Source of the DNA: Moniliella sp. 'wahieum'
Taxonomy: Eukaryota
DNA: 64,000 nucleotides
Reading direction: 5' to 3'
Assembly (NCBI GenBank): GCA_003971905.1
Contig: RSEE01000029.1
Location: 558,001-622,000 of the forward strand
Position numbers and translations under genes: made by a program. Position 1 is the first letter of the stretch. The number at the start of each line of letters is the position of its first letter. Below, one piece after another: positions 3,390 through 39,100 of the stretch. Under the pieces are notes generated by a model. The model was not told the origin of the DNA. It was given only the letters and a program-made list of their open reading frames with translations, and did no database searches.

Positions 3390-5837
3390 ATGCCGTAGCA
3401 AGATGAGAGAAGATGTTACGCAGGTGTGTTGATGTGGTGAGAGGGTTGGTGGTAGGTTTTACTGTAGAAGCGAAGTGATGATGCTGTGGGATGGCCAAGC
3501 CAGTTCCAAGCGTTTTATACCAAAGCACCACCCTTCATATCATGCATCCTATGTTCTGGCCTTCTCCCCCCTTCTCATCCAGCTGGTATGCCGAATTTTG
3601 CCATATTGTGAGACTTGCGGACGTGCGCGGCAAGCCCATTTTGCTCCCCCCCGCACGTTCACCCGGTACTTTGCAGGGAGAGTGTGGGAAGGACCGGGAT
3701 GGGGAACGTGGTAACGCGTTACCGTTACCGTTAATAGCGTAATGCAGAACGGCTAATCCATCAAGTGGAACGTTAAATGGGTAGCGAAATACGGCACAAA
3801 AGGTTGCGGCTCATCAGACGACGCATATGCTGTAACGCGGTAACGAAGTTCGAAGGGCTTGGTGCTTGGTGCAGTGTGGTTGCATTTGTGATCGATGATC
3901 GATTCGATGAGGCATGGGGCCTGGGGCGTGGGCAGGCCAGGGGACCGGGGATCGGTGACGCCCCCCCCGCTGAGGCTGAGGTTCAGGCCGGCGCCTCCCA
4001 TACGTATATGGGTGCGTGGGCGGACACGCGAAGGGGAGCCAGCCACCCGTCGAACTTGCCACACTTCCGATGATCGATGAGATCGAGATTCGATGAAATC
4101 GATTGAGCTGAGAGCTGCTGAGCCTCAGCGGGTTGGAGTCTGAATCTGACATGTGAGCTCACTTGTAATATACGGTGTGGGGATCGTCTGACACGGACTG
4201 TGGCCGCACGCCCCGGCAGGGCGACTCATCCGCCGTCGGTTATTTCGGCTATTCGAATTCGACCAATAATACTTCTCTCCACCGTGGAAGAGGAGGCAGG
4301 CCATGGGCAGGCCTGAGCGAGTGCTGTGGGTGGGCCTACTTACATGTTATACAGTGTCACATGCACATGCCGCCATCATTGAATCTCCATGTCATACATA
4401 CATCAAGCCTTTGGTATACGAGTACTACATGCAGGTCCCTCTCACGGATATATTACTGAGTACTAATGCATCGATGGAGCGAGGTCCTGGCAGGTCCCGG
4501 CCTTACCAGACCCTACCTCTCCGGGGAAGTCGCTCGAACATGGATGGGCCCCGGCCAGTTTGCGGAGAAGTGTGGGGAACAGGTGATATGCATTTCGGGG
4601 TATGGCCTGGTATGCTGGTCTGCCCACAGACGCCTCTCTCATTCAACACGCGCTCTAATTCAGATCTCACCACCACCAGATGGCAGAGACCGCCCATATA
4701 TGAATAAGGTCTTTTAGACCTTCAATTGGTATACTTGGGCGCATGTGAAGGAAATGGATCTAGTTGAAGTAGCTCGAAGTTTGAAGCTCGAAAAGAGGGC
4801 GGAGAGTTATAGGGGAAAGCGCGAGTGAAACGCCGCCGGCCTATGCGATTTGAGATCTGAGACCTCTGTGGCATCAAACGCCGCACACAACGGTCCAGGC
4901 TTGATAGAGAGTAAACACATCCGACTCGCATTGTTACTTTTGCGTGTGTGTCTCTGTTGAGGTGTATTATAGTTGGTGCATGATGTAGTAACGCTTGGAG
5001 GGAAGTGAGCCCATATCCGTCTTTTGATGGGAAGTAATCAAGTCGGCGATCTTCCTCGGAAAGGGGTCCGCCACAGTTAGTGTGGCCTCTTCCCATTTGT
5101 GGACACAATGGTAAGGGATAGCCGGTTGTGCGGATGGAAATGCATCATGAGTCGGAGATTTGAGAAAAAAGCATAGTAAGTGCACCCTATTTCCATAGGG
5201 AACGGATGGGGCCCGGAGCAATCGGATGATCAGGAATGGAGGTGAACACACTCTGCGCGACTTGGGAACACAGGAGGCGCAGGCCGCGTACCGGAAGGTG
5301 GTACCAAGTACCAGGGACGCACCCAAGAAAACCATTTCCCCCCTTAATTGGTTTTGACAACGAACGCGAGGATAGTATGCCACCAAGACAACAGGAAAGA
5401 TGTTTGGGAACTGGAGGGACCTGACTACTGGCTCTCAATGGAAATGGCTCCTCGCTCGGATGTCAACCACGTTCATCCGTATCCTCACGTGCTTCATCGG
5501 GTCTGGGAACGGATGGCGGGCACCAGAGGGTCTCGATTTCCTGGCGATTCTCCTGGTTCCTTTAAGCGGGGTTGGCGCTCACAAACAGCACACGCCGGAT
5601 GAACAGGTCAGTTTAGGCGCATCGTTTCTTTCTCCCAGCCTTAAGCTCTGTCAATGGTATGGTTGCAGAATATAGAGATCTGTGTGGACCACATCTTTCG
5701 TTTCACCGTGTGGTACATACCTTTTCTGGTACGACACTTGTGATCTTGTTCCCTGCTCTTCTCGTTCCATCTCTCCTGTTGCTCCGCCATAATCCTTCCC
5801 CCCCTCTACTTCCTCTCTCTGGGGCCGTTCGCGGGCG

Positions 5838-5882
5838 CGATGAGGCCTGAGGTCGATGAGGCCTGAGGTCGATAAGGCCTGA
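5838..5882. repeat. 16-bp tandem repeat (CGATGAGGCCTGAGGT) x ~2.8
   Basis: Read directly: cgatgaggcctgaggt cgatgaggcctgaggt cgataaggcctga. Confidence 0.85.
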
Positions 5883-6559
5883 AGGAGAAAAAAACATGTG
5901 TTAAGATGGACCAAGAGGAGGTTATATCCTTGGTTGTTGTTTCTCTCTCTCTTCTGGAACGGTGCCAAATTAGGCGTCCTACCACGCAGCGCATTGGCGG
6001 CTGTTCGTATCTACCTACTCGATTTCGTCACAACAACCATGTGGCCAATATCTGCGCTTGCCATGTCTCCGCGATGCGCCCGATGGCCATCGGCAGCCTT
6101 CTCGGTGGCATCGAGTATACCGCGAGTACTGACGACGCACGACGGGCGCAGTGCCGGAGCGGCGAAGCGGACCGTGCGCGACACCTGGCTAATTACCGGG
6201 GATAGGGTCCGCACGGGAGCAGTGTTGCCACCCGTTCCGGTCCCGTCCCGAGGGTCCACACGAAAGCGCCGGCACATCAGGAGAGGCGCAGCGCCAGCCC
6301 AGTGTGGGCGGAGCTCAGCGCTGATCGATCGCTGATCCGCCTCTCGTTAATTTCATTCCTTTTGTCGCCATTATGCATTACGCCCGAATTCAGCCTGCCT
6401 CAATGATGTGTCCGTGCATGAAAACAAAAACACGGGCCTGTCTGAGAGGCTCCCGAGGCCCCACAGCCGGCGAATTCTCCCGTGTGCTCCCGTGTGCTCC
6501 CTCTTGCCCCCACCCTTCGACGCTATATAACCCGCGACGGTCCAGCCCCCATCCCACCC

Positions 6560-7727: not shown

Positions 7728-8482
7728 GTCCTACCTTTTCCTCTTTTCCTTACACATCCCGCTTACACGATTCAAAAGCCTGATGTGAGCTGTGCTTGAT
7801 AGGTCCTTCTTTGCTTCTGTGGCTCCTTTTCTGGTGCCTCTCGTTCGGCTGGGCTTGCTTTTCATCCTATTTTACCTGGCTTGGCACTGGCTTGTTCGCC
7901 GTCGCTGAGCTCAATCTCTCATGTACCACAACTCCTATTATGACTTTCATCCACTTGGTCCTGTGCTGTAGCACTACTATAACTTTCGGAATGATGTATA
8001 GCGCCATTGTGCATCATGTTCGCGAATGCAGCATGTTCGCGAAGGTACTGAGGGTCTGTGAATCGCCAACACACTGAGGGTGTTGGCTGATGTCCTGATA
8101 CCCTTAAACCCATAAATACACGTCGCTACAATATCTTCTGGGGTGCCCCCACCCCCACCCCACCCCCCGCTCTCCCAATCCCTCCCTGCCCTCTCGTACA
8201 GTTTGCTATGATTATCATATAGGCAAATTGGACTTGTGCGCACTGCCGTCAACCAACTTCCACTGCAGGCTGTGCAGGCACCGTAGTGTCTTTTCGCCGG
8301 TGCCCACTGACTTTCACTCCGATGCCCACATCCATCTCACCCAACAACAGTTACCCAAACGGAATGGTTGAATGCAAATCTGGAAACTAGGTTGGAGACA
8401 GAAAATATGTGAAGGGAGGGATGGGAAGAGGAGCAGATTAAGATAAGTACCGCACTTGAGAAGATAAACCCAGCATCATGAA

Positions 8483-11400
8483 TCACCAGATCCACGACGA
8501 GCGGGGAGCCGGACGACTACTCTCCTTGGGAGGAATGATCAACTCTCGTACCGGACGGGGGGCATACAAATCTTCCTCCCACCCAGTCTGGTCCTGCTGC
8601 AACGGCGGGGTCTGCAATTGAATCGTCTTGCCCGGTCCGGCAAACGCAACGAGCGGGAGTTGGGGGTGAAATGACACACCCCGGTGGCGGCGCATATTTG
8701 ATGCTCGTGCTCGCCGCCAACGGGTCCGTCTTGCGTAGCGACTCGACCGCCCGACGTAACTCTTGGGGCGACCGGGCGACCTGGGGTGCAGCGGGGGTGA
8801 AGTGTTGCAGAGGCGTACCCAGGGGCTGGAAGGGGTCCAACGTGGCGCGAAAGGCGCGACAGGTTGCCCTGCCTTCCTACGGGGTTGGTTCGTGGCTTGC
8901 TCATCGCAGCCAAAAGGGGGATGCGGTCGTGCACGGCAAACCCAGCCACGGCGGCCCGGAGAGCCGGCTGCACGGTATACTGCCCTACCGACGCCGTGGC
9001 ACGCAAATCCCATAACCGCACACCCATCCACCGCACAACTGACCAATTCACGGCCTCCAAAGGATTGAATGTGCACTCCACGAATGTAGCTCCGGTGCTC
9101 CTCCCACACTCGGACCATCGCGCTGTGGGGCGGATTGCGTCGGTCAAGGCCCGTACCGACCCGTCGTGCCCACCAGCAAAGAAGAGGTCCCCTGCGTCCT
9201 TCTCGCTCGCCAGCGCCATTACGGAGGAGTCCATCGACGTGGGCACATCCTAGCCCACATAATGGTTAGGATCCAAGACCAAACACGGAGGTGGGGGGGA
9301 GAGGAGACGTACCGAAACACAAGTTTCGCGATGTGCGTCCCAGACGCGTACCACGGGCGAGTCCCCCGCAGCAAGTAGGTGACCCGTAGCTTGGACCCAA
9401 TCGAGGTGAAGCCCAGCGGGTGAACGTTCTCGAGCGCATCAGGCAGGGCACGGAACGCAGCTAGCAGCTCGGTAGGGCGCGGGGAGAGGTACGGAACTGT
9501 TCGTCGCTCGTGGGAAGCAGACGGTCGTAGTGGCGGAAGATGCGACGTCTCCGTCTGATGAGCCCGTGACCAGCAGCGAGGCATCCGCCGCTTCGTTCAG
9601 GAAGGCCAGGGCAGTGACATGCGTCCGAGCGGATTCCCATTGGCAAACTCGTTCAGCAACTTGCCGCGACGCCAGTCCCAAATGCTCACCACATCCTCCC
9701 CACTGGCCACGGCAAGATGGTCTTCGAATTGGTGGAATGCAAGGTGGTGGGGCACCTCACTGTTTCGTAGACTCTTCAGTTGGCCCGTCCAGGGTGTGGT
9801 GGCTGTCCCAATGTCAGTTTGGCGGCTTCTTACAAAACAAGCAGACTGAAGACGACGTACCTGCCCCAGGGGCATCGGCTTTACTCTGCCGGACAATGCG
9901 GTCGTTGCGATGTTGCTTGTAGGACTGGACGTTGGACGCTACCGAACCCGGTTCATTCGGTTCTGGGTCGCGCATCTGCGGCATGGTGTACATCTCTGCT
10001 GCCCAGCCATACAGTCGGCTCATAAGAGGAAGTGTATCCGCCGCAATTGCCTCGCCCGTCACGTTTTCTGGTGGAGTCGGCTGTCCACGGCCGCGGAAGC
10101 GCAGAAGGTCCCGAGCAAGCAGGTCAGCTAGCGCGTCTACCACACCCCCTTCGGGAGGAGTGCGAGCTTCCCGTACAGGAAGGGGGGTAGCTGCGTACTC
10201 CACACCCCCACCGGGGGGCATGGGCTTACGCAACCGCATCACCGGCTCAGACGGCTCTGCAGAGTCGAGGTTTAACGCTGCAAGACGGTCCTCTGTGCGG
10301 GGCATATCGATGTCGGGAGTGGAAGGGCGGGAGAAGCCCAAACCCAACGCACGTGCCGCTTGGCCAAATCCACCCTTTGTCCAAGCGTCGGGGGTGGAGG
10401 GGACCGTTTGTGAGCCGTGGTGTGGCGCATGAGAGAAATAGTCCTGCGGTGGTGGCGAGGGTTGAGGGAAGAAGCGCGCCATCAGCGGAGGGGGAACCAG
10501 GTTGATTAGCACGCTCCCTGAGGCGACAGCCGCGTCAGACGAAAGTAGATGGGCGGTGATGTAGTCCACCTGGGTCGAGGCCAGTGCAGCCACGTCGGGG
10601 AAGGGATCGACGCTAAGGTCAAGGAGGGCATCCAAAATGCTTCTAAAGGCAGAAAGGTTGTCAATGTCCGTCTCCTCGAAAGGCGTGCGTTGGGCCAAGG
10701 CTCCCCACAAGTGATCCAAGAAGCGGTCCAGCTCGTCCGTCTCAGGATCGATCACTTTCTCCCCCATATCTTCATCGTTGCCCCCACACCAAATGTAAGG
10801 TACATGGCCAGTGCGAACCACCCCGCATACTCCCGTACCAAGGAGACATGGCGATGAGAAATTCTCTGCGCACCAGAGGCGAGGGATCCGAATGGCAAGA
10901 CAGCATTGCGACTACCAGCCCAACCTCCACGTCGCGCTGAATGGCATCCGGCAGGCCTGTGGATGAGCCCGTCCCCAGAACAACAGGACGCGAGGTACCG
11001 CCAGGAGTATTAGGATCACTTGCTGCGGCGCGCGTGGCGAGCGAATGTGTGGTGGGAGTACTGGGAATATCATCGGTTGGAGTGCGAGCTCCTAGGAACG
11101 TGCCCAGAGCATAGAGCAGGGCGGAGCGCACCTCAGGTGCCGGGTCGGACAACATGGAGACCAACTTGCCATGTGCGTCCATATCCAGTGCCTTGGTCTT
11201 GCCCACCTCAGACCGTCCCAGAGACGCGCAAGACCGCCGACCATTGCCGGAGGAGGAAATCGTCGTCGTCCAAGTGCTCGATGCAAGAGTTCATCACGTC
11301 CGTTGCTTGCAAGCACATGAGCTGTCCGAGGGGATAATCGTAGGAAAAGACAGAGAGGATAAAGGCACACATTGCCCGGTGCTCGACACATGGGGAAAGT

Positions 11401-13456: not shown

Positions 13457-13759
13457 GGCGCGTGACGCAGCACGCAGCACGGGCGAGCGGCAGCGGTTCG
13501 AGGCACGAGAGGAGGTGGAGGCGGAGAAAGGAGAAGCACCGTCCAAAAGGGGGATCGATTACTAGCTGGCTGCCTGTATGCCTGCTGGGCAGCTGGTGGA
13601 CCGAACAGCGCGGCAGCCAGTGGTCAGCTGACCACCCGTCAAGCAGCTCGGCGAATACGTAAGCAGCAATAAGCCCCGCTGCACCCCAACGATCATCGAT
13701 CACCGATCAAGGTTCAACGTTCAACGTCCCATTATGATATGCAGTGTCCACATCACCAA

Positions 13760-13840
13760 GGACGGCTGGCGCAATGGTAGCGCGTCTGACTACGACTGGT
13801 TGTAATCAGGAGGTTGCAGGTTCGACCCCTGCGTCGTTCG
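13760..13840 (+). tRNA. tRNA-Arg, anticodon ACG, with 9-nt intron (13796-13804)
   Basis: Acceptor stem GGACGGC/GTCGTTC. D arm GCGC-AATGGTA-GCGC. Anticodon arm TCTGA-CT-ACG-A[CTGGTTGTA]A-TCAGG. T arm GCAGG-TTCGACC-CCTGC. Oligo-T Pol III terminator at ~13860-13865. Confidence 0.95.
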
Positions 13841-14051
13841 ACCCGACAAGGGCGTCCTATTTTTTGCTTTGCAATATTTTTCTCAGAACTCCATTTCATT
13901 TCGCATCATAACTTGGGCCGAAACCGAGACGCATGCTTCATCAGGTGTGCCTCTCGTCCACCAGGCTGCCTCATCCACTTGGCTTGCCCATCCAACCAAC
14001 CCGCGCTTGCCGCAGCCTACCACAGCTCACACCCCCTCAGTATCATTCCAT

Positions 14052-15009
14052 TCACTTTTGCAGCGCAAACACTGCCGTCCAGACATCAAGTGTGGCCACA
14101 GGCTCCCCCTTGGGAGGGGTGACCTTCTGGAGCGCTTCCAGCGCCTCCGCGTACAGCTTTTCCTGAGCGTCCCCTGCCTGCTCTGCTGCGGCACGGAGGG
14201 TACGCAAATGCGCCCTCGCAGTGCCCACTTCCCATAATCCGTCATTCAGGGCTGGGGAGGGTAGTACCTTTTGCCGAATGAGCTCGTACCCATTTTGCCG
14301 CATCAGCTTCACCACCTCAGGGACAGGCAGCACGGTGCGGATGTTGCCCTCCGGAATGGGGAAAGTGCGTTGGATATTGACAGCCATGCGATGGGCTGGA
14401 GCAGTGGAGCTTCCATCCAGGTCCCACTCCGCCAGACAAATGTATGGGACACCCTTATCTTTAGCGCTTGTGATCATGGCGCGCACCGCCTCCTCGTTGG
14501 CAAAGTACCAAAGAGAGTGCAGGAGGACCAACACATCCACTTCGGGAAGGGAGGGAAGAATGCTTGCGTCGCCCTGGTGAAACTCAAGGAAGGAGCCTAA
14601 GGGTCCACTGCGGAGATGGGCTTGTGCCTGTCCAAGGGTGAAGGGACTGCCATAGTCGAGCCTGAACAAAACAACGTCAGCGCCAGCGCTTACTAGTCTT
14701 GCCTTCTCACCATGAAGAAGACGTACGAGCCAGGGTCAATGCCATAAACTTTGCCCTGCCCCTTCTTGCTCATGATCGAGGCCAAGACGGCCGTTGCGTC
14801 ACCTTGTCCGCACCCAAGCTCGGCCACCCTCTGAAATTCAGCCTCGCCAAACTGATGGAGTGGGAAGGATCGGGGGTCAGCCAGGCACGCAGGATCTCGA
14901 TCCGCTCTTGAGTCTGACGGGCTTGCTCAGTCTTCCCTGATTCGTCAGGGAGGGCACACAGGCTGGCAATTGCCTGGGCGTCCAGGCTGTCAAGAAGGGG
15001 GATCGACAT
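14052..15009 (-). CDS. Class I SAM-dependent methyltransferase
   Basis: After an indel correction, motif I reads VAELGCGQGD, followed by VYGIDPG|SLDYGSPFTLGQAQ, LHSLWYF, ICLAEW and DGLWEVG. Intron 14662-14726. Confidence 0.85.
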
Positions 15010-15577
15010 CGTGGAAGTTAAGAGCTAACTTTGGCGCCATTCCCCGAATGGGGGAGCCTTTATATCGAAGCGTTGGTGTGGCTATCACATCACACGGTTC
15101 CCAGAGCGCACGCGTTCACGGCCATAAGCTACTAGTCACTAGGTAGCTCTAGTCGACAATCGATAAATGTCGAATGTTCAACGTTCAACGTGTTCAATTA
15201 CTTAACGTGCAATTTCGTCCAATAGATTTGAACTACAATAGACTCGAACGCACTCATTCGAGTCATTCAAGTCGCAACAGCACCGCATGGTATAACCACC
15301 GCCATTCAATATTCACGACAACCCACATGAGCGATTGAGCAAGCTATCGGCTGCCATTGGGGGTCCATTTCCCTGTTCCTTGTGGTCGCCAGTAGTATAG
15401 GCATGTCCTTGTTCTTTCAATAAGGTATTAACTTGTCCAACTCATGGGCGACTGCGGGCGTGCCAGCCTGCGCCAGCCCGGACGAGAGCCTGCTGAACCA
15501 CCGCGGGTGGCTCTCGTGTGTTTTGGCCAACATCCCTTCAGTCTCTCCAGGTCCCTCCTGAACCTCAGGCCTCGCAG

Positions 15578-18725: not shown

Positions 18726-19809
18726 AGGTGGTGGAGAACGCGGAGGGTACGCAGTGGTGTCAGAACCTAGTGGCGCTCTGACTGTGTTTGGGGGGGAGCG
18801 GAGGCAGCAGCGACGACTGGGGGGGGGAGAGCGCATCAGAGGTTGCTGGGCCTGGGACGGGGGGAGTGAGGAGAGCGGGCATGGCATGTCCGCTTGCTGA
18901 GCGCTGGTTATGTTCGGGAAGACGAGAAGAAGAAACGTGAATGTGGTGGTGTGTATGGGCGGCAAGTGTGGTGACGTCGGAGGGGCGGTTCGGCGGGGCG
19001 TGGGTTCAAACCAGGTCAATGTGGTGGTAGCTGGGCAAACACCGCTGGCTAGGCTACACCCTGGAGCTTGGCTTGCATGCTGACGCGTGAAACAGATTAG
19101 GTAAGCTGCTAGGACGTCGTCTGTGTACCAGTCGCGTGTTCGGTGATGAGTGAGTGATGTGGATCGCGTAATGAGGCGCCTTAGCTGAATAGGCAAGTCA
19201 GTCTGACGCACCTTTGGTAGACGAACATGGGGCTTTCGGTCCCAGTCTGGGTCTGTGGGGCGGGTCAGTACTAGAGCATACTAGCGCGGGCGCAGAACGT
19301 ACCCAGCAGTAGCCATTCTCGTAGGTGTACAGCACGACGAACGAGGCCGTGGCAATAATAGACTGAGCTTTTGGGGATCGTGCTTGCGAACAACCTCCTC
19401 ATTTAGCCTTCGCCGAGCTTTCTCGTCCATCACGTTGGTTAACCGGTTGGGGGTTGGACGAACCACAGTCATTACCCAAAATGTGTCCCAGCTCAAAGTG
19501 CCTGGGGCCTGAGGCTCAGGCCTGAGGGCCTGGGAGCCAAACGATCTGTCCTGAATATATATGGACACTTATACCACTGGGGACACATACCCTGTTCCGC
19601 TTTGTTCCGCTGTCGGGGCTCCTGACGCAGGGAGGGTAGGGCTACGCAGGTCCTATCTGGTAGCTGGATTAAAGCGCATTCAATGTTCATTGACTAGTTG
19701 TGGTTGTCGGTCAGGCCGGCCAGGTCGATCGTTGGGCGGTTATGCATTATGGTCCCCAGCTTTAACCCTCCTCGTTCCACCATCGCTCAGCGCATCCAAC
19801 GTGAGCCAC

Positions 19810-22909: not shown

Positions 22910-23913
22910 GAAGGACTTTTGCCTAATAGTGGCGCACAAGCAAATCTCCCTGATAGGAGGAGAACTACTGTCTTCGCTTCTCTGTAGTGGTTTCAAGCAA
23001 CATTAACAAACACAAACCCGATACCGATAATACATTGAGTCAAAATGGGTGTCACCGCACAGCTATAGGGAGATCTTCTATAGCCCATCGCATCCTATTT
23101 TTCAGGGCGATTGTAAGTCTGGGGCCATCGTTGTATTTGGTGTTGGAAACGCCTGTGAGAGAGAGAAAGGGGGCGGATTATACACATAAATATAGAGGCT
23201 TTTGCGGCCGAAGAAATACGAAGTTGCTAATGGCTAACAGTGTCCTGTAGAGGACCTGTGAGTGGATTAAAAGGAGCAACATGAAATTCCCCGTTACAAG
23301 CATACCGTTCCACCCCTGTGGCAAGGAGATGGAAACAATACATCGTAGGGAGAGCGTGTTCTTTATCATGATCTCTCACTGTGCTCACCCACACGGGGTT
23401 GGTGGTACAGGTGCCCAAAGTGATGAAGAACATTTTGCTCTGACCCAGAGAGAGAAAGTGGGGCATTTGTGGTGGAGATACCATATGCATGACGGTTGGT
23501 TACTGTAGAAACCTCCACATAGCTGATGGGTTGGACTCTGGGGATGGATACCGTGGTGAATCCGGGAGACCCCTCAGCGCCTTAGCCCTCTCCCCTCGCT
23601 GAAGCTTGAAGCCCTGAGACTCGGGCCTCAGGCCCAGGATTGGGGCACGTGACCAAGTGGGGCGAGTGAGCCACTGCGGGCACTCACTACACCGCAGATT
23701 CAGCGTGGCTAGTAACGGCGTACTTACATCATCAATGCCATCTCCGAGAGTTCAGGTTCAGGGTTAACGTTGTTCAGCTTGCATGTGGCAGCTTGCGGCT
23801 GAGGTTAGCCAGGCAGATCTGCCAAAAGTCGCGCTCCTCTCTCGTCTTGCCTCCCTTCCACCACCATTCACCCCTTGCCCCAACCCCTTCGTCCATCGTC
23901 TCCCACCTCCACC

Positions 23914-26100: not shown

Positions 26101-26290
26101 GCCTTGAAGCTTGAAGCTTCAAGCTTCAAGCTTCAAGCTCTAGCTTCAAGCTTCAAGAGTCACTCACTAGTCACTAGTCAAGCGTACTTCACATGTCACA
26201 GTGACTGTAGTCGTTGTTCAAATTCGTGTGTTCAACGTAGTTCAACATTCCTACGTTCAACACGTTCAACGTCAACATTCAACTTGAACC
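26101..26290. repeat. Composite array of 7-bp palindromic units (CTTSAAG, AGTCACT, TGTCACA, GTTCAAC)
   Basis: Read directly. Includes a perfect 28-bp palindrome cttgaagcttgaag|cttcaagcttcaag at 26103-26130. Confidence 0.9.
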
Positions 26291-26901
26291 ATCCCCACCA
26301 GGCGAATCAGGTTGACTGGTGTGAGGAACTCAAGTTGAACGTTGAGGGCGGCCCCGTGGCCAGGACATTTAGATTGTCCAGCGGTCGAGGACGGGTTCAA
26401 CGTGTTCGTCGTTCGTCCAACGTTCCACCAAGCCATTATGATAGCCTACACTCGTTCTACCCATTCGTTCTCACATTTGCGCGCAGCATTAGGCGGAAGA
26501 ATCGACTTGATGGATCGGTCCCTGAAGACGATGGACTACGCTACTACCTCTTCCTCGACCGCAGAGCTCAGCTGAGCAAACATTGAGGAGCGGGTTCGAA
26601 TCAACGACCCGGAGATACGTCCCGTATTTACATTAGCGCATTAGCACCCAACTGCATGCGAGGCGAAGGCGTATTAGGCCTTAGGCCAAAGAGTATTCAA
26701 GGCGTTCAAAGACAAGTTGCAGTGAAGGCGCATGTACATTTGAACCTACAAAAACCCCAGCGGGGGAAAAAAGAAACAAGATCGTCATAGCGGCGAAGAA
26801 CGACAATAGGGGAAGGAAGCCCGTACCGCAGATCGCAGAGCAATGCCATGGTGCAGGTGGTATCGAAGCGCTGATATACGCAGGGCAGGCGGGAGCCGGG
26901 C

Positions 26902-27491
26902 TCATGCACGGCTTAAGCTCGCGAGCTGCCGAACGTCCTTAAAGTCGCCGCCACGGAACGCGCCAGCCCCAATGGTTGCAACCACACAGAGCATAAATGT
27001 CGTCAGGACGAAGTTAATGAAACCAAAGGCAATCAACGTCTCGTTCGCAGAGCAGTACTTGAACGACGAGTGGGAGCAGTTCTGGGCACCGCCCATGGAC
27101 GCAGTCAGACGCAGCAGCCGACAGCCAGAAGACCCAGTCAAGGAAGATAAAGATGAGGTGCGAGACGATCGAGGTGAACACACCGCCAATGCCGGTGAGG
27201 AAGCAGACAACCTGGAGACCGATCAAACAAGTCAGAATGGGCTGGGAATCGGTAGTGTGGATCGTGGGCTATACGTACATAAGCCGTGGCAAATAGGAAG
27301 GAGAACCAGCCGACGAAGAGGAAGAAGCGAACGCGGGCCTTAACTGAGGACTTGACGTCCTTGGCAGCGTCCTTGGCGTTGTAGTCGTGCACCAAGACGG
27401 AGGCGATGATGGCGACGACGAGGGAGAACAATGACAGCACGCCTAGAGTGACAGGCGCGCCACGGCGAACAATAGTGCTGGCGTCAACCAT
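26902..27491 (-). CDS. MARVEL-domain four-TM membrane protein (Nce102-like family)
   Basis: Four hydrophobic helices: TLGVLSLFSLVVAIIASVL, RVRFFLFVGWFSFLF, LIFIFLDWVFWLSAAA and C..ETLIAFGFINFVL. Intron at ~27212-27277 and one indel. Confidence 0.82.
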
Positions 27492-28856
27492 TGCAGAGGA
27501 AAGAGGAAAGTAAGGGCGAGTAGAAGAAGCGGAAGTGGCAAAGGTTAGGTGGTGTGGGGGGGGGGTACGACAGGAAAAAGAGAGAGGAAGGCCGGAGGTA
27601 GTGCGTTGCCGGGCAACCTACTTATATCACCGCGACCGGCAGGGGCGCGCACAGGCCAGTGACGGCAGACGGGCAGTGTAGGATTCGATGACCTCACTTC
27701 CCCCGTCAGTGCCGTCAGTACACTGAGTTAGCGCCGAGCGCAAAAGAGCACTCGCGGCCGGCGCGCACGCATGTTGCACTGCCCCCGTGCCGGGTACTAG
27801 TCCGGTCTCGGCCGCAGTGGCCCGCCGCCGTTGCTCGAGTGCAAGTCCGCGGGGGAATGCGCAGCCTTGCACTGCCCCCGTGCGTCGCTGAACTCTAGGC
27901 GTTGGGGAGGCAGGTCGCGCGGGCAGCCCAGCGCCACTGTCGGATGTTTGCCGCCGTCGGTGGCGGCACATGCTCGCACTTTTGTTCGCTTTATTTTTTT
28001 AGCTGGGGGCACCGCGGGCACCCAAGCGGTGTGGGCATGGGGCGTGCTGCAGCCACACAAGCCAGCGGGAGCTCCTGCTGAGGGCTGAGCCTGCTCAGGC
28101 GCTGTGCCGGATGTTGCGGCGCGCAGGCACGGAGGCACTGTGCGCTAATGCGAATCGCTGGGGCGGGCTCGCACATGGCGCTGTGGGCCATTGGGAGCCA
28201 TACGCCGTGTGACAATGTGACGCAACCTGGCCGCCGATCATTTTTTTCTGTCAGCCAACTAATATAAACGCGTAACGCGTAACTGCGTAGCTGCCACGCC
28301 TGAGCCTGACACTGACCCCAACGCCGGGGGGGCAGCAGCCGCGTCCCGGAAGTGTAAGCACGGGTGGACATTGCATGGACCGGATGCAGGTTGCAGCACA
28401 GCTCTACCACCGGTCCCATCCCTTCCCTCTGAATCTGACGCGCCGTGTCATGCACGTCGGGCCCTCAGGTAATGCGTAAAGAGTAGAGTTACTAATGGCT
28501 GTGGCCCTAGCGATGACCACCTTCTGGCGCCTGTTACATGTTATTTTCAGTCTCTTGGCCCTTGAGCTCGACCGGTGACCGAGACGCTAAGTAACTCGGG
28601 GTGGTACTGGTACGCTGACTCAGTACTTCTGAGTAACTGAGTACTGAGACTGAGTACTGAATAAGGAATGCTGATTGCTGATGATCGTCAACGGGCCCTT
28701 CAATTGGGGTCAGCGTGTCAGCGAGTTCGGCCACCCAAGCATCATGTGCATGCACCTGCATGCACTCGGTAGAGAGTCTCAGCGTAACACATCCATCACA
28801 ACCACTTAGGTGTACGTACTTTATCATCGACGTTCGACGTTCGGCATCCATCGACC

Positions 28857-28986
28857 ATCTCAGATCTCAAATCCCTCAGATCCTCAGATCCCTCAGATCC
28901 CCAGATCCCCCAGATCCCCCAGATCCCCCAGACCCCACAGGCTCAGACCTCCGAGATCGCTCAGGGTCTCTTCTCAGATCTCAGAA
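28857..28986. repeat. Degenerate 8-9-bp minisatellite (CAGATCCCC / CTCAGATC)
   Basis: ctcagatctcaaatccctcagatcctcagatccctcagatccccagatcccccagatcccccagatcccccagacccc...ctcagatctcaga. Confidence 0.9.
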
Positions 28987-29045
28987 TTCATCGGTCATCA
29001 ACATCGTCGCAACCACGCTGCGTTTCGCGTTCTAGACACCACTTT

Positions 29046-29096
29046 ACGTTGAACTTGAACTTGAACGTTGCGTTGACGTTGAACGTTGAACGTTGA
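29046..29096. repeat. GTTGAAC heptamer array
   Basis: acgttgaacttgaacttgaacgttgcgttgacgttgaacgttgaacgttga. Confidence 0.9.
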
Positions 29097-32000
29097 TTAT
29101 TGATCGGCCTTTCGCACCGGTCGCAGTCTCTCGTGATCTGACGGATCTGACGGAGCCAACCTCAGTAATGCATGAACCTGTTCAGCGCTTCGACATTCAA
29201 GCTTCAAGTTCCCTCCGGCTTCCGCTTGCGGGAAAATCAACCTCCCATTCGCGTTGCATCGAACGAACGGCTGGCTGGGCCGAAGACAGAAGACGGTTCG
29301 ATGTCGAACGCTGTCATCGCAGCAACGTGTACGATGCTCGATCGGCGCAGAACAACCATCGAATCATCATGGGTGCCGTCCAGGTGTACCATCATGCATC
29401 ATGCATCTGGCATCAGATAAATCAGTGTTCAATTTGAACGTTCACTGAACGTTACTCGCGTTACTTGTGAACGTGAGAACGTGACCCATGTGAACCCCCT
29501 CTGCCCCAAGCCTGCCCCAACCAACCATTTCACGTCAGCATCACGTCATCATGCACAGGCATCATGCATCATGTGCTCATGCATCATGGGACACTTTCAA
29601 CTTTGAAGGCATTTGAAATGTTTAGGCACTACCCTCAGGCCCCATCGACCATCGGCCTCTCCTGCCCCAATAACGAATCCACCAACTCGACGATGCTCGC
29701 AAAAAAAAGCAGTCCGAAGCGAGGCTCCGCACATTGTGGAGGGTAGACAAAACCACCACACCACATATCCCTCCTTCATTCACACGTTCCATGAGCGAAG
29801 GATCTGACCACCATGACAGAGCCCCTCGGCATCTTATTATCAAGTCCATTATGTACCCTTTTGGAAGAACATTTGCAAAACTTACGCACAGAAGGATCAT
29901 GATATAAGTAGAGTAGGAAACGCTTTTTGTGTCGGCATGATGACGGATGAGAAGTCTGAAGGTCGCCCATCCATTGGCGTTTACGCTGACAGCTCGAAGA
30001 CCCCGAGTCCACATTCTACGGGAGAGTCGTTATATTAGCAGGTGAGAAAGGGCTCCCTCTGCCTCCCAGTATTCGTTTCCAAACCAGATGAACTATATGC
30101 GGGGGTGGATGTGAACGAGCACGATGGATGTGTGAGGTATGGGAACCATCCCCAATATTCTTTTCAGCTCTCGTTCTTTCCAATGATCGAAAGATCCCAC
30201 ATCTTCTTAGCAGTCTTGTTCTTGGCATAATATCATGATGGCATGCTTGCGTCGTAATGACGAAAAGGGGAAAGAACGGAAAATGGGCGGATCCCGGATG
30301 CTTTGCTTTCTTCTCGCAATCATCCTACTCGAGTAGCCACATGCGGCTCCTTCTCTCGAGGTTCCATAATAGTGAACTTCTCCTAAGACCTCTCGTTTAC
30401 CGCCTTACGGGAATGCCCCGTAGCCACCTATGAAACTGAACCCCTCAAAAGGTGTATTGGGCCATCTCCATCCCTGAGAGATCCTTCAAATGCACCTTCT
30501 GCATGATTCTACTACGGGGCAGTCCGTAAGCTTCTGTGTGCTCTTCTCCCTGGTCTTGTTCCTTGTTTCCCCCAAGACCCCAATGACAATATTCGTCCTG
30601 CTGGGCCAGCATTGCACTCAAGGTGGCATCCGATGCGTCGGTCTCGATACGGAGAAGCCGACAAAGATCAAAGTGGCAAATGGAATGTGAGGACTGAAGT
30701 GAAGGTCCGCTTCAGGTTTCGTCTAAGGCACTTTGGCGACCTATCAAAACGCTGCTGGGTCTTACGGATAAGGTCCTCAGAATGTCAGAGGGAAATGTCA
30801 AGATCGTTCGTGGGAGTAAACGACAGGCATCGGGCAGGGAACAGAAGAAGCAACAGGGAAAGGAAAGAGCGAAATAAAGACGGGGATCAGAATTGGACAT
30901 TGTAGAGTGAGCGTAGTCAATCTCAGGGGCACGCAGGCTCCCATCAATAAAAAGGACGAATAGTATGTACCCCAAGATAGTCAATCCCCCTTTAAGTGCT
31001 GTCTTTTACTTCGGTGTTCATGTATCTTCTGGGGTTGAAGCTCACCTTCGGCACCAGTTGCACTCCCAACGTATGTGAAGTTATTGCAATGCCATCTGTT
31101 CCCATCCATTCAATCCATTGATACTGATGAAAGGCGTTTTCGTTCCAGAGCACAGCTAGGGGGATTGTCTCATGGTGCCCTATACCATCCACCACGGCAG
31201 CACACTGCGCTTTTTATCTTTTGATCGGAGCGTAGTGTTCCATGGGAGTGTCCGAGTTGATGGGGCGCCAGGGTGATGTTTCCCCATCGGTTCCATGTGG
31301 GTTTTATCCCTGATTGGTTGCCTGCAGGGCATGGGTGTTTAGGGTGGTTTGGGGATGAGAGGGTTCTTCGGGAGAGGCCAGAGAGCCTTCGGATTTTGTA
31401 ACTCTAATGGCCTATGTCTCCCAGCGATTCTATTGGATAGCAGAGCTGAATGCAATGGTGGTTTAAAGACAGGATAGGGAACTTGGCCCAGCAGAAGAAT
31501 CAAAGAGGATGGGGATCATGGAGCTGCCAGGCGCTAGACAAGTCTCTGAGACCCGATCGAACACGATCGAATCTGGACTCAGCTCCTCGGCCAGACAGGG
31601 AGAGGACCAAGTTAGCATGACTTAGAGGTTTTATTGGCCCTTAGACCCCCCGGTCAACAAGAAGGAGAGACACAGCCTCGACGAACTATTAAACGGAGCT
31701 GAAGATGATCTTCAGGACGAGGAATAAGCCGCATTGACCGCAATGAACGGAGCGACGAAGCAACATTTTTTGCCCCCGTTTATAGGGTACTAAACTGGGT
31801 TCCAGATGCAAGGACCCCTCACGGTTAATCGAGCCCGAATTCTATTGGTGGGGGGTCCAAACGGAGAGCTAGGGACGAATGAAATTTCCTTGATCAGCTT
31901 GATCACTGTGTCAGCTGGCGTAGGAAGGTTGCGTAGTAGTAAGACGCGGGATAGAGCACAAGACGATATCGTTCTTCTGTAGTTCGTGGTCCCTCAGGGT

Positions 32001-33217
32001 TGGCTGAGAGAAGGCCGCACAGGCAATGAGACAAAGAGAGTCTCCTTATTGAGACGGAGAGGTCCTGTCGCAGGAGGAACTCAAATCGCTTGGGATGGCA
32101 GCACGATCCGTACGGATTGGACTGTGGATCCCAGAATTCGACGGCAATATATACTTAGACGTCCATGGAAGCAGTCGACAAAAAGCTAATGGACATTGAA
32201 AGCAATATCCTTCCTGGTAGAGTGGAGACTGCCAGGCCAATGAGTGGTTGCAGAAATGGAAAGGGACCCCAAGTGAAAGATGTATTAGATGATTGTGGAC
32301 GAAAAACGACCCGCTGAGTGGAGGGAAAGCACATGGTTCAATAGCTCTCAAGGCTCATACTACAGACAAGTTCTCTACGGGGACCAGCCGGTGGTCCTCC
32401 GAAAAAGGAACGCATACCAATTGGGGAACGCTTACCGGTTACCTACGGCTCTATTTCCGACAGCTGTTGAGCGCGTACCGCCGCTGCGAGTAGGTCCGCT
32501 GATGCGTTTCTGCCTACGTCGCCCATAAGTCATATAGACTCGACTCGTTCCTTGGTACGCAGCATGCGCCTCCGTTTCTTTCGGGCTTCAGTCGGGGCAT
32601 TTCACAGCCCAGCGAATGCCCCTCCCAGCTTTATGCTTCAGAGGAGAAGGACAAGGGGAACCAGTGGGAGCTCTCAGGGGACTGTACGTTGATTCTGCTC
32701 TTGCTTCTTCCCACGAACGATCGCCACATCCTTTTGGCCTAGTCTCGACTCTGGTCACCCTTTTTGCCTTAGCCCCGACTGCGACATTAATTATCATTGG
32801 TGGGGAAGAGGCAAGAGCGAGGACATGGTGCGAAACGCTCTGGACGTAGCACTCTCGGTGAGTGTTGAGGGTTTGAGTACTTAGGAGAGTGCAGTACCGA
32901 GAGTGGGTTTTGGTTTTCCTGGTTTTGTGTAGTTGTCTCCCTGTTATACCGTAAGCGGGACGGCAAGCAACTGGTTATCGAGAGGCTATCCATTATCGGC
33001 TATGGATTATCGCCCCAACGTGCGTGCAGCCCAAAAAGACTGCTCAACTTCCCCTTCGACGGCGGAAGAGACAGAAAGAAACGGTGGTGGGGAGAGGCGT
33101 ACAGCTTACAGGTCCACAAACCGTCTGCGTCAACGTACCGCGGTTTTAGACAAGAGGCCGGCTAGGGTTTAACGCGTTCATGTGTGTGTACGCGAGTACA
33201 TCCGAGGGAAAAGACGG

Positions 33218-33412
33218 AGTCAGCTAGTCACTAGTCAGCGCTCAGCCACTATACTAGTCCGCACAGTCAGCGATAGTCTCGCTATAGTCGTTGTACGTAT
33301 GACTAGACTGGTCACTTGCTCACTAGTCACACAGGTCACTCGCACTAGTCACTAGTGGTTAATCATTGACTGTACTGAGTACTCAGACTGAGTGCTGACT
33401 AGCTGACTATAG
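33218..33412. repeat. AGTCACT / ACTSAGT heptamer-palindrome patch
   Basis: Repeated ctagtca units, cactagtcactagtg (33343-33357) and ctgagtactcag (33375-33386). Confidence 0.85.
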
Positions 33413-35289: not shown

Positions 35290-35607
35290 CTCTCTCGCGA
35301 CCATTCTAACCGTCGTGGTTCGCGGATGAATGTTGAACCCTCGTCCTTCCCCTTCCATTTTGTACCATCCAGGGATTCCATTCTTGCCTCATCTAAAAAC
35401 GACGCCCGCCCGCGTCTTTCGTCTGCTACGATGCACATGCCCTGCCCCCCCCCACCCCAGTGTTGCTCCCACCATCTCCACCCCCGCTTCCATGCCGCTT
35501 CCCAATTCCTTTCTCCTTCAGTTTTACCATTTCCTTTCCCTAGCCAACTGGTATGACGGTTCCCACATTCCCTTTTCGTCTACAGTAAGCGCTGTTTTTG
35601 GTTAGCT

Positions 35608-36177: not shown

Positions 36178-39100
36178 ACCCCATTTCAACCGTGCTGTTC
36201 TTGATGTGGCCTAAGCGGGTTGCTCCCATTCCAGAAGTTTAAGTTGTTTGAACGCAGGCACAATCATCCAAATCAGTGGCTCTCTCACACCTCTAGCTCG
36301 CGGGTCTTACGGGCTCTAAATCCTCCAAGAGGGTATACCCTTCAACTATATATTCAAGAGGGCAGGTCTCCAAACCTCAAGCGCCATGATACATGACACA
36401 CCGCGTGTAATTGGACGTGCCAAGGAGGAATAAGTGCTATCGGATGATAATCGTAGTGCCTTGGCAGCCTTCCTAGCCTTCGCTTGCTTCGACTGCTTCC
36501 CTCTGCCAACATCTATACGCCAGTGCGATGGGGCTTGACAGAGTTGTTCCGACCACGACGCTCGAAGTGCTCATCATTTCCCTTATACGTACAACGTTCT
36601 TTCACGCTGAAGGTGTAGATGTAACATGCGGAGTTGGGGGCGAAAAGCTTAAGAGTAAGAAAACGCTAGTTCGGGAGCGGACAGACCGTCTTATGGGACC
36701 CCTGGAGCGCAACTTCACCACCAGGTGCATCATGCATCAGGCCCTCAGGCCTCTCAGGTTCCTCTCAGGACATGGATAAGCAGGACTCCTAGTTGCGCGC
36801 TTCGTTCCACATACCTTTTGTGTGCCCGCGTGATTGCGTTTGTTGAGATCTCTTCGAAGGGGGGAATGGTCGATGGCAGCACACATACTCGCATCCGTGC
36901 TGGCAGTGCGTGAAGACATTGCAGCGAGGCCTGAGTCTGACAGCGCCAGCGCTCAACGTGTTCAACGTAGAACGTTCAGTTGAACGTCGAACACCACCTG
37001 TAAATGTTATAAAGTACGCTATAAACGTTAATTATTCAACACACATGCGCTTGCGCTCTTTCAACCTCAAACAAGCATGCACACAACATACTTCCTGCTC
37101 CAAAAATTAAAACTGACAGGCACACCCTCGCAGACAAAATGCTATTACTTGTTCGCTCTCTTCCTTTTTTCACGCAGTCTCGACCACAAAACGCAACAGA
37201 TTGCATGTGGAGAAACGTGGCGGCGGAGGAGGGCGGAGGTGGCGCCGTGCATGTCACGTGTCACATGTGGCGTACGTGACGTGGGGATCGATCACACAAA
37301 TCACAAATGGGATGCACTCTCCGACTGTCTAATTGCTATAACCGACGAACAAAACCGACAACTCCCGACATTAGTACTGAGACTCAGTACCATCAGTATG
37401 GAGGGCTAGGAGCCGGAGGAGAGACATTATCCGATTTGGAAGCGTCCCTATATAGTCTCTGTCGAACGAGAGACAGATCGGCTACGCTAGGGTGCTATAC
37501 AGTGTGACATCAGCATACGCTCATACAAGGACTGAGCGCGGAGCGTCGGCCGCGCGGACTAGTAACTAGAGTAAAGCTAGTAACTAGTAAAATGTAAAAC
37601 CAGAGTAACTAGGCAACTGACTCAGTAACTCAGTGCTCAGGACCTCAGGGCCTCAAGCCTCAGGTTTTGAGTAAGCCCTTGCACCCGTTTTTTGGCCCTT
37701 CCCGGCGAGCTGGATCATCGATCAAAGCTCTTGGATTATCGATTAATAGTTGCTGCGCTAGCCCCGAGCAGTAGCTGGTTGGAGACAGAAGGCTGAGGCG
37801 GTGAATGCGATGATATGGTCGATGACGATGATCGACGAGGAAGTAGTGGAGACGGCGATAGCGTTGAGTCACGTGCGAGCCGGGGGAAGCCCGCGGGGGG
37901 CTGGTCAACGTGGTCAACCACATCTTTCTCAAGTGGGTCTCAAGCAGCGCACAAAAAGTGGGGGAGAGCCGAAAAAGCGTGGGTACGTTGAGAAGCTAGA
38001 AGACTGTTGAGTGAGACGTTGAGGAATTGAGGCCCGCAACAATGTATAGTACGCACAGCAGGCCATATTCCGGATTGCGTTAACGCATCTGCCACCCAAC
38101 GTGGGCCTGGCAATGCTCCGTTCATTAGTGTGGAGCCCTACGAAGCAACCCCCATACAACTCCATCATTGATACCATCTTAGCTTCAAGCTTCAAGCTTA
38201 ACTTGTGACACTGGCTGAGCTGCTGAGTCGCTGAGGGTTTTGTTGGCCTGGGTTAGCATGTTAGCAGCTCGTGTATTGTCTTTCGAAGACCCTGGCGAAT
38301 GCGTGCTATGCCGACCGGGTGTTGCGGTGTTGGCCCATTCAATTTCAAACGAAGCTGGACGCCCCCCGACGAGGCTCTATAGCTGCCGGGCAAAATGCTT
38401 GATAGGCTCGAGGCACCTCTACTGCCGGTGCACCGCCACACTGCTGGCGGTGGACATACATATAAGGGCCCTGGATTATTTTGAAGCCTTGTGCTTTGGG
38501 CTTTGGTGGCACCTCAGGCATCGGGGCGCCTCTGCCTGCCTGCGTCTGCCCGTGGCAGAGAGTCGGAATATATATCTTTCGCCTCTGCCTCCGCTTGGCA
38601 GAACAGACTCAGTGGGTGGCGTTGCGGCTTCTCTTGTCTCACTCTCCCCCATCCTCTGGTGCAAGGCAGAAGGTGGGGGACACTGCCCTTCCGCCAGTGC
38701 GCGGCAGAGCAGCCGGCACAGATGGAGCACCCCGCCAGTGTCCAATCTCGTTCGACCATGCACAGTGCCCCCTCCCCTCTTCACGCGTAGCAAGGAAGGG
38801 AATGCAGCTTGCTTTTCAGGCGCTCAGGCTCAGTGCTCAGTTGCTCAGCCTCTGGGCCGTTCATCTCCATCTCATCTCAGCTTGGGTGCATTAGATACTC
38901 TGGCCTTCCAGCTGACATCGCTAGCAGCAACCACGCTCCGTGGGTGGAGCGGACCACCGGGCTAGAGACTCATCGATGAGTAGTGTACAGCGACACGTGT
39001 TGTTGAACCTATATGGTACTAACCGTCAACCCGACACTTGACCGTATAATCCGCACAGCACTTTCTTCCTCTTTCTCCACCTCCACCAATTCAAAAGCGC

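Follow-up and report, generated by a model that had tools for sequence, protein, structure and literature searches.

Short tandem repeats are usually ascribed to sequence-blind slippage, and the microsatellites and cryptically simple DNA that slippage produces are head-to-tail, variable in copy number and non-coding, mix several units in one patch and decay to imperfect copies. The target-site duplications and footprints of DDE transposases (IS10/Tn10, PIF/Harbinger, hAT, Tc1/mariner) have a fixed length, two-fold symmetry, a centre flanked by T and A, and an ambiguous central base. Several of these enzymes favour T...A-symmetric targets; the IS10 target is 9 bp with a GCT-N-AGC core, PIF/Harbinger duplications are the 3-bp T-N-A, and the canonical Tc1/mariner footprint is a 7-nt odd palindrome. 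In yeast, unstable short tandem repeats upstream of genes tune expression; they are mostly AT-rich and not palindromic. Arrays of heptanucleotides are found in bacteria, including the cyanobacterial STRR and those of Xanthomonas and Nostoc (Rehm et al., 2015, PMC4692102); these are intergenic, have locus-specific units and often form inverted pairs, and the units themselves are non-palindromic because symmetry arises from paired arrays. According to the available excerpts of Murat et al. (2020, PMC7441554), eukaryotic genomes contain fewer and shorter structured short tandem repeats (unit length 1-6 nt).

Here we describe intergenic arrays in a fungal nuclear genome in which one length and one symmetry dominate; a literature search returned no description of such period-7 palindromic arrays in fungi, nor anything on the TCACGAT-type heptamer runs that the initial annotation had mentioned for smut intergenic DNA. 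They share period, location, locus-specific units and inverted pairs with the bacterial arrays, which are prokaryotic, usually longer and built from units that are not palindromes, whereas here each unit is palindromic. Their enrichment runs counter to the eukaryotic trend in the excerpted data on structured repeats. They resemble microsatellites in all the respects listed above, but unit length peaks at 7 and dyad symmetry about an invariant T-S-A core characterises most units. Unlike DDE footprints, they reach 8 copies, have outer palindromic positions of variable sequence and come without any element, transposase or terminal inverted repeat (TIR) that we could find, and we know of no fungal transposon superfamily with 7-bp duplications of this form. 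They differ from the yeast promoter repeats in the mixed composition and dyad symmetry of their units and in being absent from many promoters of the window.

Results

The evidence comes from a single 64-kb window (the whole stretch of DNA analysed) of an error-prone assembly. By homology it belongs to the nuclear genome of a member of the Ustilaginomycotina near Tilletiaria, and it carries the fungal nuclear marker genes Raptor, POL1, UTP20 and CPSF100; a Georgefischeriales-like relative of Tilletiaria is the best explanation for the host. The assembly contains frameshift errors: in POL1 (41786-46700) the frame shifts between adjacent homologue matches without a gap between them, and one such change fits a base lost in a run of G.

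Tandem Repeats Finder reported period 7 in 26 of 114 rows, all within 3857-38199 and none beyond 38850. Exact tandem duplications of period 7 spanning 14 nt or more were compared with 30 dinucleotide shuffles, the kind of control that the initial annotation had called for: 30 were present in 3700-38850 (1.9 +/- 1.4 expected) and 2 in 38851-64000 (1.4 expected). A perfect odd-palindrome rotation exists for 19 of the 32 period-7 runs, with about 3.5 expected (7/64 per random heptamer), a dependence on unit sequence that sets the arrays apart from microsatellites. Eighteen of these 19 units have a T-N-A core (15 T-S-A, 3 T-W-A). Palindromic units make up only 1/63, 0/8 and 0/6 of the runs at periods 6, 8 and 9, respectively. 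The arrays thus exist far above chance, with symmetry specific to period 7 and a T-S-A core. Every example coordinate in the initial annotation carries the unit given for it. Its picture of recurrent intergenic arrays also stands, although its roughly 20 separate patches reduce to about 10-12 intergenic clusters; the T(C/G)A centre it described is likewise present, and the T(A/T)A centre that it took to occur sometimes is rare. The arrays are listed below by position in the window, without strand.

3710-3733: 14-nt even palindrome around ACGCGT, then CGTTAC x2.8; upstream of a minus-strand MFS transporter gene
3889-3903: TGATCGA x2.1 (ATCGAT + G; palindromic rotation GATGATC)
4068-4130: loose GATSATC run, then a GCTGAGC/CTCAGC inverted pair (13-nt odd palindrome, centre 4123)
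13687-13727: GATCATC-like units, then GTTCAAC x2.3; between the Raptor start (minus strand) and tRNA-Val
15130-15197: ACTAGTCACTAG, then GTTCAAC x2.3
19505-19530: inverted CCTSAGG units; 17-nt odd palindrome, centre 19514; upstream of a minus-strand FHA-domain gene
23600-23635: CTTGAAG x about 2, then CCTSAGG-type units
26103-26157: CTTSAAG x8; a centre switch from G to C yields a perfect 35-nt palindrome, centre 26120
26164-26180: AGTCACT (ACTAGT + C) x2.4
26193-26345: TGTCACA/AGTGACT pair, then 5 loosely spaced GTTSAAC units, the last inverted
28267-28289: AACGCGT x3 (W-centred unit CGTAACG)
28629-28660: ACTGAGT x4.6
28866-28985: companion non-palindromic 9-bp array CTCAGATCC x8.6 (28866-28940), then TCTCAGA x2
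29046-29096: ACGTTGA (GTTGAAC) x8, some copies at period 6
29390-29415: CATCATG x3.7
29538-29588: degenerate CATCATG-type array x7
33218-33409: ACTAGTC arrays (33218-33239, 33307-33356), ACTSAGT inverted units, GCTGACTA x2
36726-36769: CATCATG x2, then CCTCAGG-type units
36950-36990: GTTSAAC units, loosely spaced, both orientations
37250-37268: CATGTCA (TGTCACA) x2.7
37374-37390: 17-nt odd palindrome GTACTGAGACTCAGTAC, an inverted ACTSAGT pair
37558-37664: ACTAGTA x4, then ACTSAGT units, then CCTCAGG-type units x about 4
38181-38235: CTTCAAG x2.7, then GCTGAGCC x2.8
38822-38848: GCTCAGT/GCTCAG x about 4

The same bias appears when 7-nt odd palindromes are counted irrespective of repetition. 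In 3700-38850 those with a T-N-A core number 196, against 110.7 +/- 8.9 expected (z 9.6), and the other cores are not in excess: A-N-T 111 (117.5 expected), C-N-G 148 (176.3) and G-N-C 147 (174.1). The T-N-A enrichment is absent from 38851-64000 (50 observed, 69.5 expected). It is carried by C centres (88 vs 39.0) and G centres (71 vs 36.2), A and T centres not being enriched, and by at least 8 different flank types. A tandem array of such units is dyad-symmetric and is equivalent to a repeated ANNNNT hexamer with a single C or G added; the initial annotation had offered this alternative of a 6-bp palindrome with a 1-nt spacer, and six-base palindromes of the form A....T are indeed enriched (183 vs 99.6). 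The excess is clustered: isolated T-N-A palindromes are only mildly raised (86 vs 68.1 +/- 7.6), while a centre-to-centre spacing of 7 occurs 13 times (0.12 expected) and one of 13-15 occurs 15 times (about 0.5 expected).

Arrays range from 2 to 8 copies and their runs start in any phase of the unit, with lead offsets 0-5 all represented; 1 of the 7 exact 14-nt runs begins at the first base of a symmetric unit, and 10 of the 19 exact runs hold at least two complete symmetric units, the other 9 holding one. Centre flips and inverted unit pairs produce longer odd palindromes, of which 7 have arms of at least 8 nt (0.75 expected), including the perfect 35-mer. Compared with shuffles, single-strand folding is clearly better for 3 of 7 arrays (z -5.2, -3.1 and -2.3) and lies between z 0.0 and -1.5 for the other 4. 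Arrays with a uniform centre fold poorly, and strong hairpins therefore do not seem to be common to all arrays.

None of the 18 T-N-A runs falls within the 26,571 bases of coding DNA supported by Pfam or homology. The position of many arrays is promoter-proximal, 150-500 bp before the start of a gene (MFS, Raptor, FHA, the ORF at 14055-14735), and some occupy divergent intergenic regions; the single clear convergent 3'-3' spacer (7788-8483) has none, nor do the promoters of POL1, UTP20 and CPSF100 (39-64 kb). Non-palindromic tandem repeats with periods of 6-11 and unrelated units share the array patches, as where 8-, 10- and 11-bp repeats lie close to the 9-bp x8.6 array at 28866-28940; the non-palindromic units of periods 6, 8 and 9 had no place in the initial annotation. 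In the part of 1-38850 that is not supported as coding, the number of non-palindromic runs declines smoothly as the period grows (28, 9, 6 and 5 at periods 6, 7, 8 and 9), with no spike at period 7, and the 18 palindromic runs form an extra spike at period 7 only.

Discussion

We tentatively propose, at a probability of roughly 40%, that the patches are cryptically simple non-coding DNA made by successive local tandem duplications, with an inversion from time to time and a preference for dyad-symmetric heptamers. Many small, recent, local events, mostly tandem duplications of very short units, would build the patches; some local inversions or strand switches would invert the central base, giving rise to longer perfect palindromes; and later point changes and indels would degrade the arrays to copies with loose spacing. 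The process, or else the survival of its products, strongly favours a single geometry, a 4-bp palindrome around T-S-A. Its origin would probably be tied to replication or repair and not to insertion or excision of mobile elements, with slipped or folded-back intermediates perhaps favoured where both strands share the same short self-pairing. Both this mechanism of duplication and the cause of the preference for 7 bp and T-S-A are inferred here, and the arrays are presumably selectively neutral. The presence of periods 6-11 with unrelated units in the same patches argues for a regional duplication-prone state rather than one site-specific event. Plain slippage predicts no sequence bias, yet 18 of the 19 palindromic units are T-N-A, with C or G at the centre. 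Further points weigh against our proposal: single-strand folding clearly surpassed shuffles in just 3 of 7 arrays, hairpin-assisted expansion as a general rule conflicts with the scarcity of structured repeats in the excerpted data of Murat et al. (2020, PMC7441554), and the promoter proximity of many arrays also suits a regulatory role or promoter-targeted cutting.

The initial annotation attributed the arrays to a recurrent process that cuts NNTNANN sites with a 7-nt stagger, with transposase footprints or hairpin/fill-in repair as candidates, or alternatively to chromatin-boundary or replication elements read by shape. Recurrent duplication fits the perfect head-to-tail copies and the repeats of other periods in the same patches; for staggered cutting by a transposase, the window offers no support, whereas hairpin repair and reading by shape may still apply. 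A dimeric DNA-cleaving enzyme with a 7-nt stagger centred on T-S-A would duplicate 7 bp by fill-in and rejoining or by repeated insertion and excision; a repair nuclease is one possibility, and a transposase or integrase, domesticated or not, is another. Fixed length, two-fold symmetry and an invariant T and A beside the centre are what is expected of a dimer on duplex DNA, and the preference for promoter-proximal DNA also speaks for such an enzyme. We nevertheless consider it an unlikely source, since a Pfam scan of 303 ORFs (104 + 100 + 99; 3.4-39.7 kb) turned up no transposase domain, and a search of the whole window for 3-9 bp duplications flanking 14-nt inverted termini (at least 12/14 matching) found no TIR pair with a 7-bp duplication, nor any at 8 or 9 bp. 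By this search the 64-kb window yielded no DNA transposon with 7-bp target-site duplications, which the initial annotation had proposed looking for; TIR pairs with other duplication sizes number 32 (3 bp), 8 (4 bp), 1 (5 bp) and 1 (6 bp), as raw counts without a shuffle control. Arrays of up to 8 copies, not 2, also count against cutting, as does the lack of a spike among non-palindromic period-7 duplications. Only 10 of 19 runs contain two complete units, 9 have just one and, of the 7 runs of exactly 14 nt, a single one starts in the phase predicted, although later decay could blur this signal. Assembly errors could likewise blur run phases. Base-specific recognition of T-S-A moreover leaves unexplained the outer two pairs, which are palindromic in at least 8 sequences.

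That the arrays are selected promoter elements, whether homotypic site clusters for dimeric transcription factors or sequence-independent structures that exclude nucleosomes or extrude cruciforms, also seems doubtful to us. Several lie 150-500 bp upstream of starts or between divergent genes, the convergent 7788-8483 spacer lacks them, and their units are 6-bp palindromes of the type bound by dimeric factors. However, at least 8 enriched flank types are too many for a single factor, the strict 7-bp spacing rotates each site by 240 degrees around the helix relative to its neighbour, the POL1, UTP20 and CPSF100 promoters (39-64 kb) are without arrays, and perfect copies suggest recent origin more than conservation. 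ACGCGT, the sole unit tested in this respect, which we take to resemble a known fungal cell-cycle box, is not enriched (15 vs 12.6 expected) and is absent upstream of POL1. The recurrence of a few units across patches and the inverted pairs could instead recall a decayed dispersed mobile element with sub-repeat arms, foldback-type or MITE-like, and a weak RT_RNaseH_2 match lies between two patches (30448-30711; sub-threshold at 21.2 bits, cut-off 29.8). We regard this as very unlikely: no repeat families longer than 34 nt are shared between patches, two of them (patches C and E) do not align outside the motifs, and, as T-S-A flank types number just 16, recurrence of units is expected by chance. 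Least probable of all is that the arrays are sequencing or assembly artefacts. Indel errors do occur, as the POL1 frame changes indicate, but homopolymer-type errors cannot make perfect 7-bp palindromic arrays of many sequences, and the arrays occur in a single part of the window only, in non-coding DNA. Assembly errors could nonetheless have affected copy number and the occasional copies with period 6 or 8.

If the dominance of one unit length and one symmetry extends genome-wide, it points to one identifiable molecular step, which could be cutting with a 7-nt stagger, the use of a minimal-sized flap or hairpin intermediate, or a template switch. It would then provide a eukaryotic counterpart to the unexplained heptamer preference of many bacteria and show fast rewriting of promoter-proximal DNA in a compact fungal genome. 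A stronger version, to which we give little credence, is that an endogenous activity of the lineage acts on short dyad-symmetric, T-S-A-centred DNA and lengthens it by 7 bp each time. Its agent could be a transposase or integrase that has been domesticated, a structure-specific nuclease, or peculiar lagging-strand flap processing. Such an activity would constitute a geometry- and sequence-specific mutational signature, continuously adding palindromic DNA to promoters and long intergenic regions, and could feed regulatory evolution with raw material. If the arrays are regional only, they may mark a special chromosomal domain, gene-poor and possibly containing a retroelement relic.

Palindromic period-7 arrays exceed chance expectation in non-coding DNA

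We report that positions 3700-38850 carry tandem arrays of 7-nt odd palindromes with a T-N-A core, and that this pattern is real, beyond chance and non-coding. Every example site listed in the initial annotation carries the unit ascribed to it when checked in the sequence, and Tandem Repeats Finder places all of its period-7 rows (26 of 114) within 3857-38199. In 3700-38850 we count 30 exact duplications of period 7 versus 1.9 ± 1.4 in dinucleotide shuffles, and in 38851-64000 the count is 2 versus 1.4, which bears out, within the window, the proposed excess over shuffled controls. In 19 of 32 period-7 runs the unit can be rotated into a perfect odd palindrome, while palindromic units make up 1 of 63 runs of period 6, 0 of 8 of period 8 and 0 of 6 of period 9. 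The T-N-A centre attributed to the units is found in 18 of the 19 palindromic runs, with C or G in the middle in 15 of these 18. Among the runs of 1-38850 that lie outside supported coding DNA, those with non-palindromic units become steadily fewer as the period lengthens (28 at period 6, 9 at 7, 6 at 8 and 5 at 9), and the period-7 peak is therefore due entirely to the 18 palindromic runs. Coding DNA supported by Pfam or homology amounts to 26,571 bases, and none of these 18 runs falls inside it, in agreement with the intergenic location first described.

Counted singly, 7-nt odd palindromes with a T-N-A core are also in excess in 3700-38850 (196 versus 110.7 expected, z 9.6), with no excess in 38851-64000, and the cores A-N-T, C-N-G and G-N-C do not exceed expectation. 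The enriched centres are C (88 versus 39.0 expected) and G (71 versus 36.2), not A or T; we refer to this core as T-S-A, S being C or G. Half of the possible flank types (8 of 16) are enriched at z ≥ 2.8, GCTNAGC being marginal (z 1.8). The excess is clustered: a spacing of 7 between T-N-A palindromes is seen 13 times versus 0.12 expected and spacings of 13-15 are seen 15 times versus about 0.5, while isolated palindromes number 86 versus 68.1 ± 7.6.

Organization of the array clusters

The arrays group into intergenic clusters, as the initial annotation had recognized, although its count of about 20 patches reduces to about a dozen.

Array clusters (window coordinates)
3.6-4.2 kb, upstream of the MFS gene
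13.69-13.73 kb, between the Raptor start and tRNA-Val
15.13-15.20 kb
19.5 kb, upstream of an FHA-domain gene
23.6 kb
25.9-26.35 kb
28.2-29.6 kb
33.2-33.4 kb
36.7-37.0 kb
37.25-37.67 kb
38.18-38.24 kb
38.82 kb

Arrays of differing units adjoin one another, the 7-bp phase being lost from one to the next. The densest patch, at 28.6-29.6 kb, has another small tandem repeat nearly every 50-100 bp and includes non-palindromic units of 8, 9, 10 and 11 bp. Its non-palindromic 9-bp array at 28866-28940 (CTCAGATCC x8.6, drifting to CCCCAGATC) is the longest simple repeat in the region. In some arrays the centre base flips from one unit to the next: a perfect 35-nt palindrome at 26103-26137 is made up of two units with a G centre and then three with a C centre. 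Pairs of inverted units form palindromes of 17 nt at 19514 and 37382. Arms of at least 8 are seen in 7 odd palindromes versus 0.75 expected. Comparison between patches found no common repeat longer than 34 nt, and alignment of two patches with a similar unit order shows motif-level likeness only.

Host, gene content and assembly quality

Pfam matches on long ORFs (Raptor_N, DNA polymerase family B, UTP20, CPSF100, MFS transporter and pirin) identify the window as a eukaryotic nuclear region, and the protein family of the Raptor ORF was recovered by the protein atlas. A fragment of DNA polymerase alpha (POL1) is 75% identical to its best named match, from Tilletiaria anomala, 80-81% identical to two further proteins and 61-71% identical to other Ustilaginomycotina; on these identities we place the host as a smut relative near Georgefischeriales. 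The T. anomala genome has 56% G+C, 364 genes per Mb and <1% repeats (PMC4056295), and the G+C of the window is similar to that value.

Homologue matches to the essential gene POL1 at 41786-46700 (+) show several frame changes between adjoining pieces, for example at 44727-44800. No gap, intron-sized or otherwise, separates these adjacent homologous segments; one junction resembles the loss of a base in a G run. The assembly therefore carries indel errors: it is error-prone, its ORF lengths are unreliable, and short ORFs here are no evidence of introns. ARAGORN and Rfam both found a tRNA-Val (anticodon TAC) at 13760-13840 (+), the only hit of the Rfam search. This tRNA gene starts about 35 bp past an array of GTTCAAC (x2.3), and the opposite-strand Raptor ORF begins about 220 bp away.

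Co-occurrence of many unit types is a property of this region

As a background control, a metagenome scan seeded with three GTTSAAC units returned at least 122 loci covering at least 340,703 bases. By the exact-run criterion, the seed was the sole palindromic period-7 kind in 109 of the 122 loci listed, with two kinds in 7, three in 1 and none in 5. Clustered T-S-A palindrome pairs with a non-GTT flank occur at 0.02 per kb in the metagenome matches listed versus 0.77 per kb in 3700-38850, and no relative with the same multi-unit pattern was found among those matches. Multi-unit co-occurrence thus does not accompany every GTTSAAC array and is a property of this genome region.

Origin of the arrays

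The pattern is statistically very strong, unusual and mechanistically suggestive, and comes from one window of a noisy assembly. From what is observed directly we infer, with a probability of roughly 40%, that these stretches are cryptically simple non-coding DNA arising by local tandem duplication with occasional strand switching, biased toward units that combine a 4-bp palindrome with T-S-A. Repeated local duplication would build the patches, strand switching would now and then accompany the duplications, and a strong, unexplained bias would favor the palindromic units.

One of the mechanisms first put forward, transposase footprints, is a different one, and features that define such footprints were not clearly seen in this window. 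A search for transposase domains over 3.4-39.7 kb found none in any of three ORF sets: 104 with a length of 75 aa or more, 100 of at least 45-60 aa and 99 of 52-74 aa. Scanning the window for 14-nt inverted termini bordered by a duplication of 3-9 bp gave no case with 7, 8 or 9 bp, and no DNA transposon with the suggested 7-bp target site duplication; a few cases, as a raw count, have a 3-6 bp duplication. The runs do not consist of whole copies of NNTSANN, the symmetric unit: 9 of 19 contain only one complete unit, lead offsets relative to it take every value from 0 to 5, only 1 of 7 exact 14-nt runs begins at its first base, and some full palindromes span the copy junction and are absent within a single copy. 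This phase test is weak evidence because decay and assembly errors could blur phases. That the arrays stem from an enzyme acting as a dimer, with cuts staggered by 7 nt, is unlikely: it would need many cycles at a single site to yield arrays that reach up to 8 copies, and reading T-S-A would not of itself yield palindromic outer pairs of at least eight sequences. Decayed mobile elements bearing sub-repeats are a very improbable source. An RT_RNaseH_2 match at 30448-30711 (-) has an array patch on either side, both among the densest, and sits in the stretch of lowest G+C in the window (29700-33000, 0.49-0.51); with E 3e-4 and 21.2 bits, under the cut-off of 29.8, it may be a decayed retroelement. 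That the arrays are an artefact of sequencing or assembly is barely credible.

Several arrays are found 150-500 bp ahead of a gene start, where they might act as selected promoter elements. We consider this doubtful, as the promoters of POL1, UTP20 and CPSF100 are without arrays and the unit types are too many for a single factor. The only unit resembling a known fungal cell-cycle box, ACGCGT, is not enriched and is missing upstream of POL1. When arrays were folded as single-stranded DNA and scored against shuffles, the flipped-centre array was far more stable than its shuffles (z -5.2), and two more also did better than theirs: 37366-37396, an inverted pair (z -3.1), and 29040-29100 (z -2.3). 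Strong hairpins are not predicted to be a general property of the arrays, since four other uniform-centre arrays show no gain over shuffles (z 0.0 to -1.5). The remaining share of probability falls to something other than the readings considered here.

The arrays may resemble transposase targets with T...A symmetry. They behave like microsatellites and cryptically simple DNA, except that this class is indifferent to unit sequence and the arrays are not. They share a period-7 preference and inverted arrangements with bacterial heptamer arrays, as far as these are described in the portion of Rehm et al. (2015; PMC4692102) consulted, and differ in lying in a fungal nuclear genome and in having units that are themselves palindromes. 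Structured short tandem repeats are fewer and shorter in eukaryotic genomes, according to the portion of Murat et al. (2020; PMC7441554) consulted, a trend that the enrichment of arrays here opposes. In the literature searched, arrays of this kind are not described for fungi, nor are heptamer tandem repeats for Ustilago intergenic DNA, and there was nothing relevant on heptanucleotides or microsatellites in Ustilaginomycotina or on palindromic footprints or hairpins in fungi. There, a 7-bp target site duplication in fungi matched only fish Dada elements, a PIF target motif had no match, and six two-unit array strings had an unrelated match. The arrays would belong among short tandem repeats.

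A gene-poor stretch and other repeats

About 20 kb, from 19.3 to 39.6 kb, contain very few recognizable genes, among them a MARVEL-domain ORF at 27141-27617 (-), where T. anomala has 364 genes per Mb; 19300-39600 could be a special chromosomal domain. Two further repeats, a 12-bp x8.2 repeat at 58800-58898 inside the CPSF100 ORF (-) and a 42-bp x2.1 repeat at 47587-47675 in the UTP20 region, are probably coding, as 12 and 42 are both divisible by three. Between the divergent MFS and pirin genes, a 16-bp unit (CGATGAGGCCTGAGGT) is repeated 2.8 times at 5838-5882; its CGATGAG part resembles what is presumably a ribosome-biogenesis promoter motif. Independently of the palindromic family, C/G-rich heptamers are over-represented in 3700-38850, with CCCCCCC found 32 times versus 10.2 expected and CTCCTCC 28 times versus 7.1.
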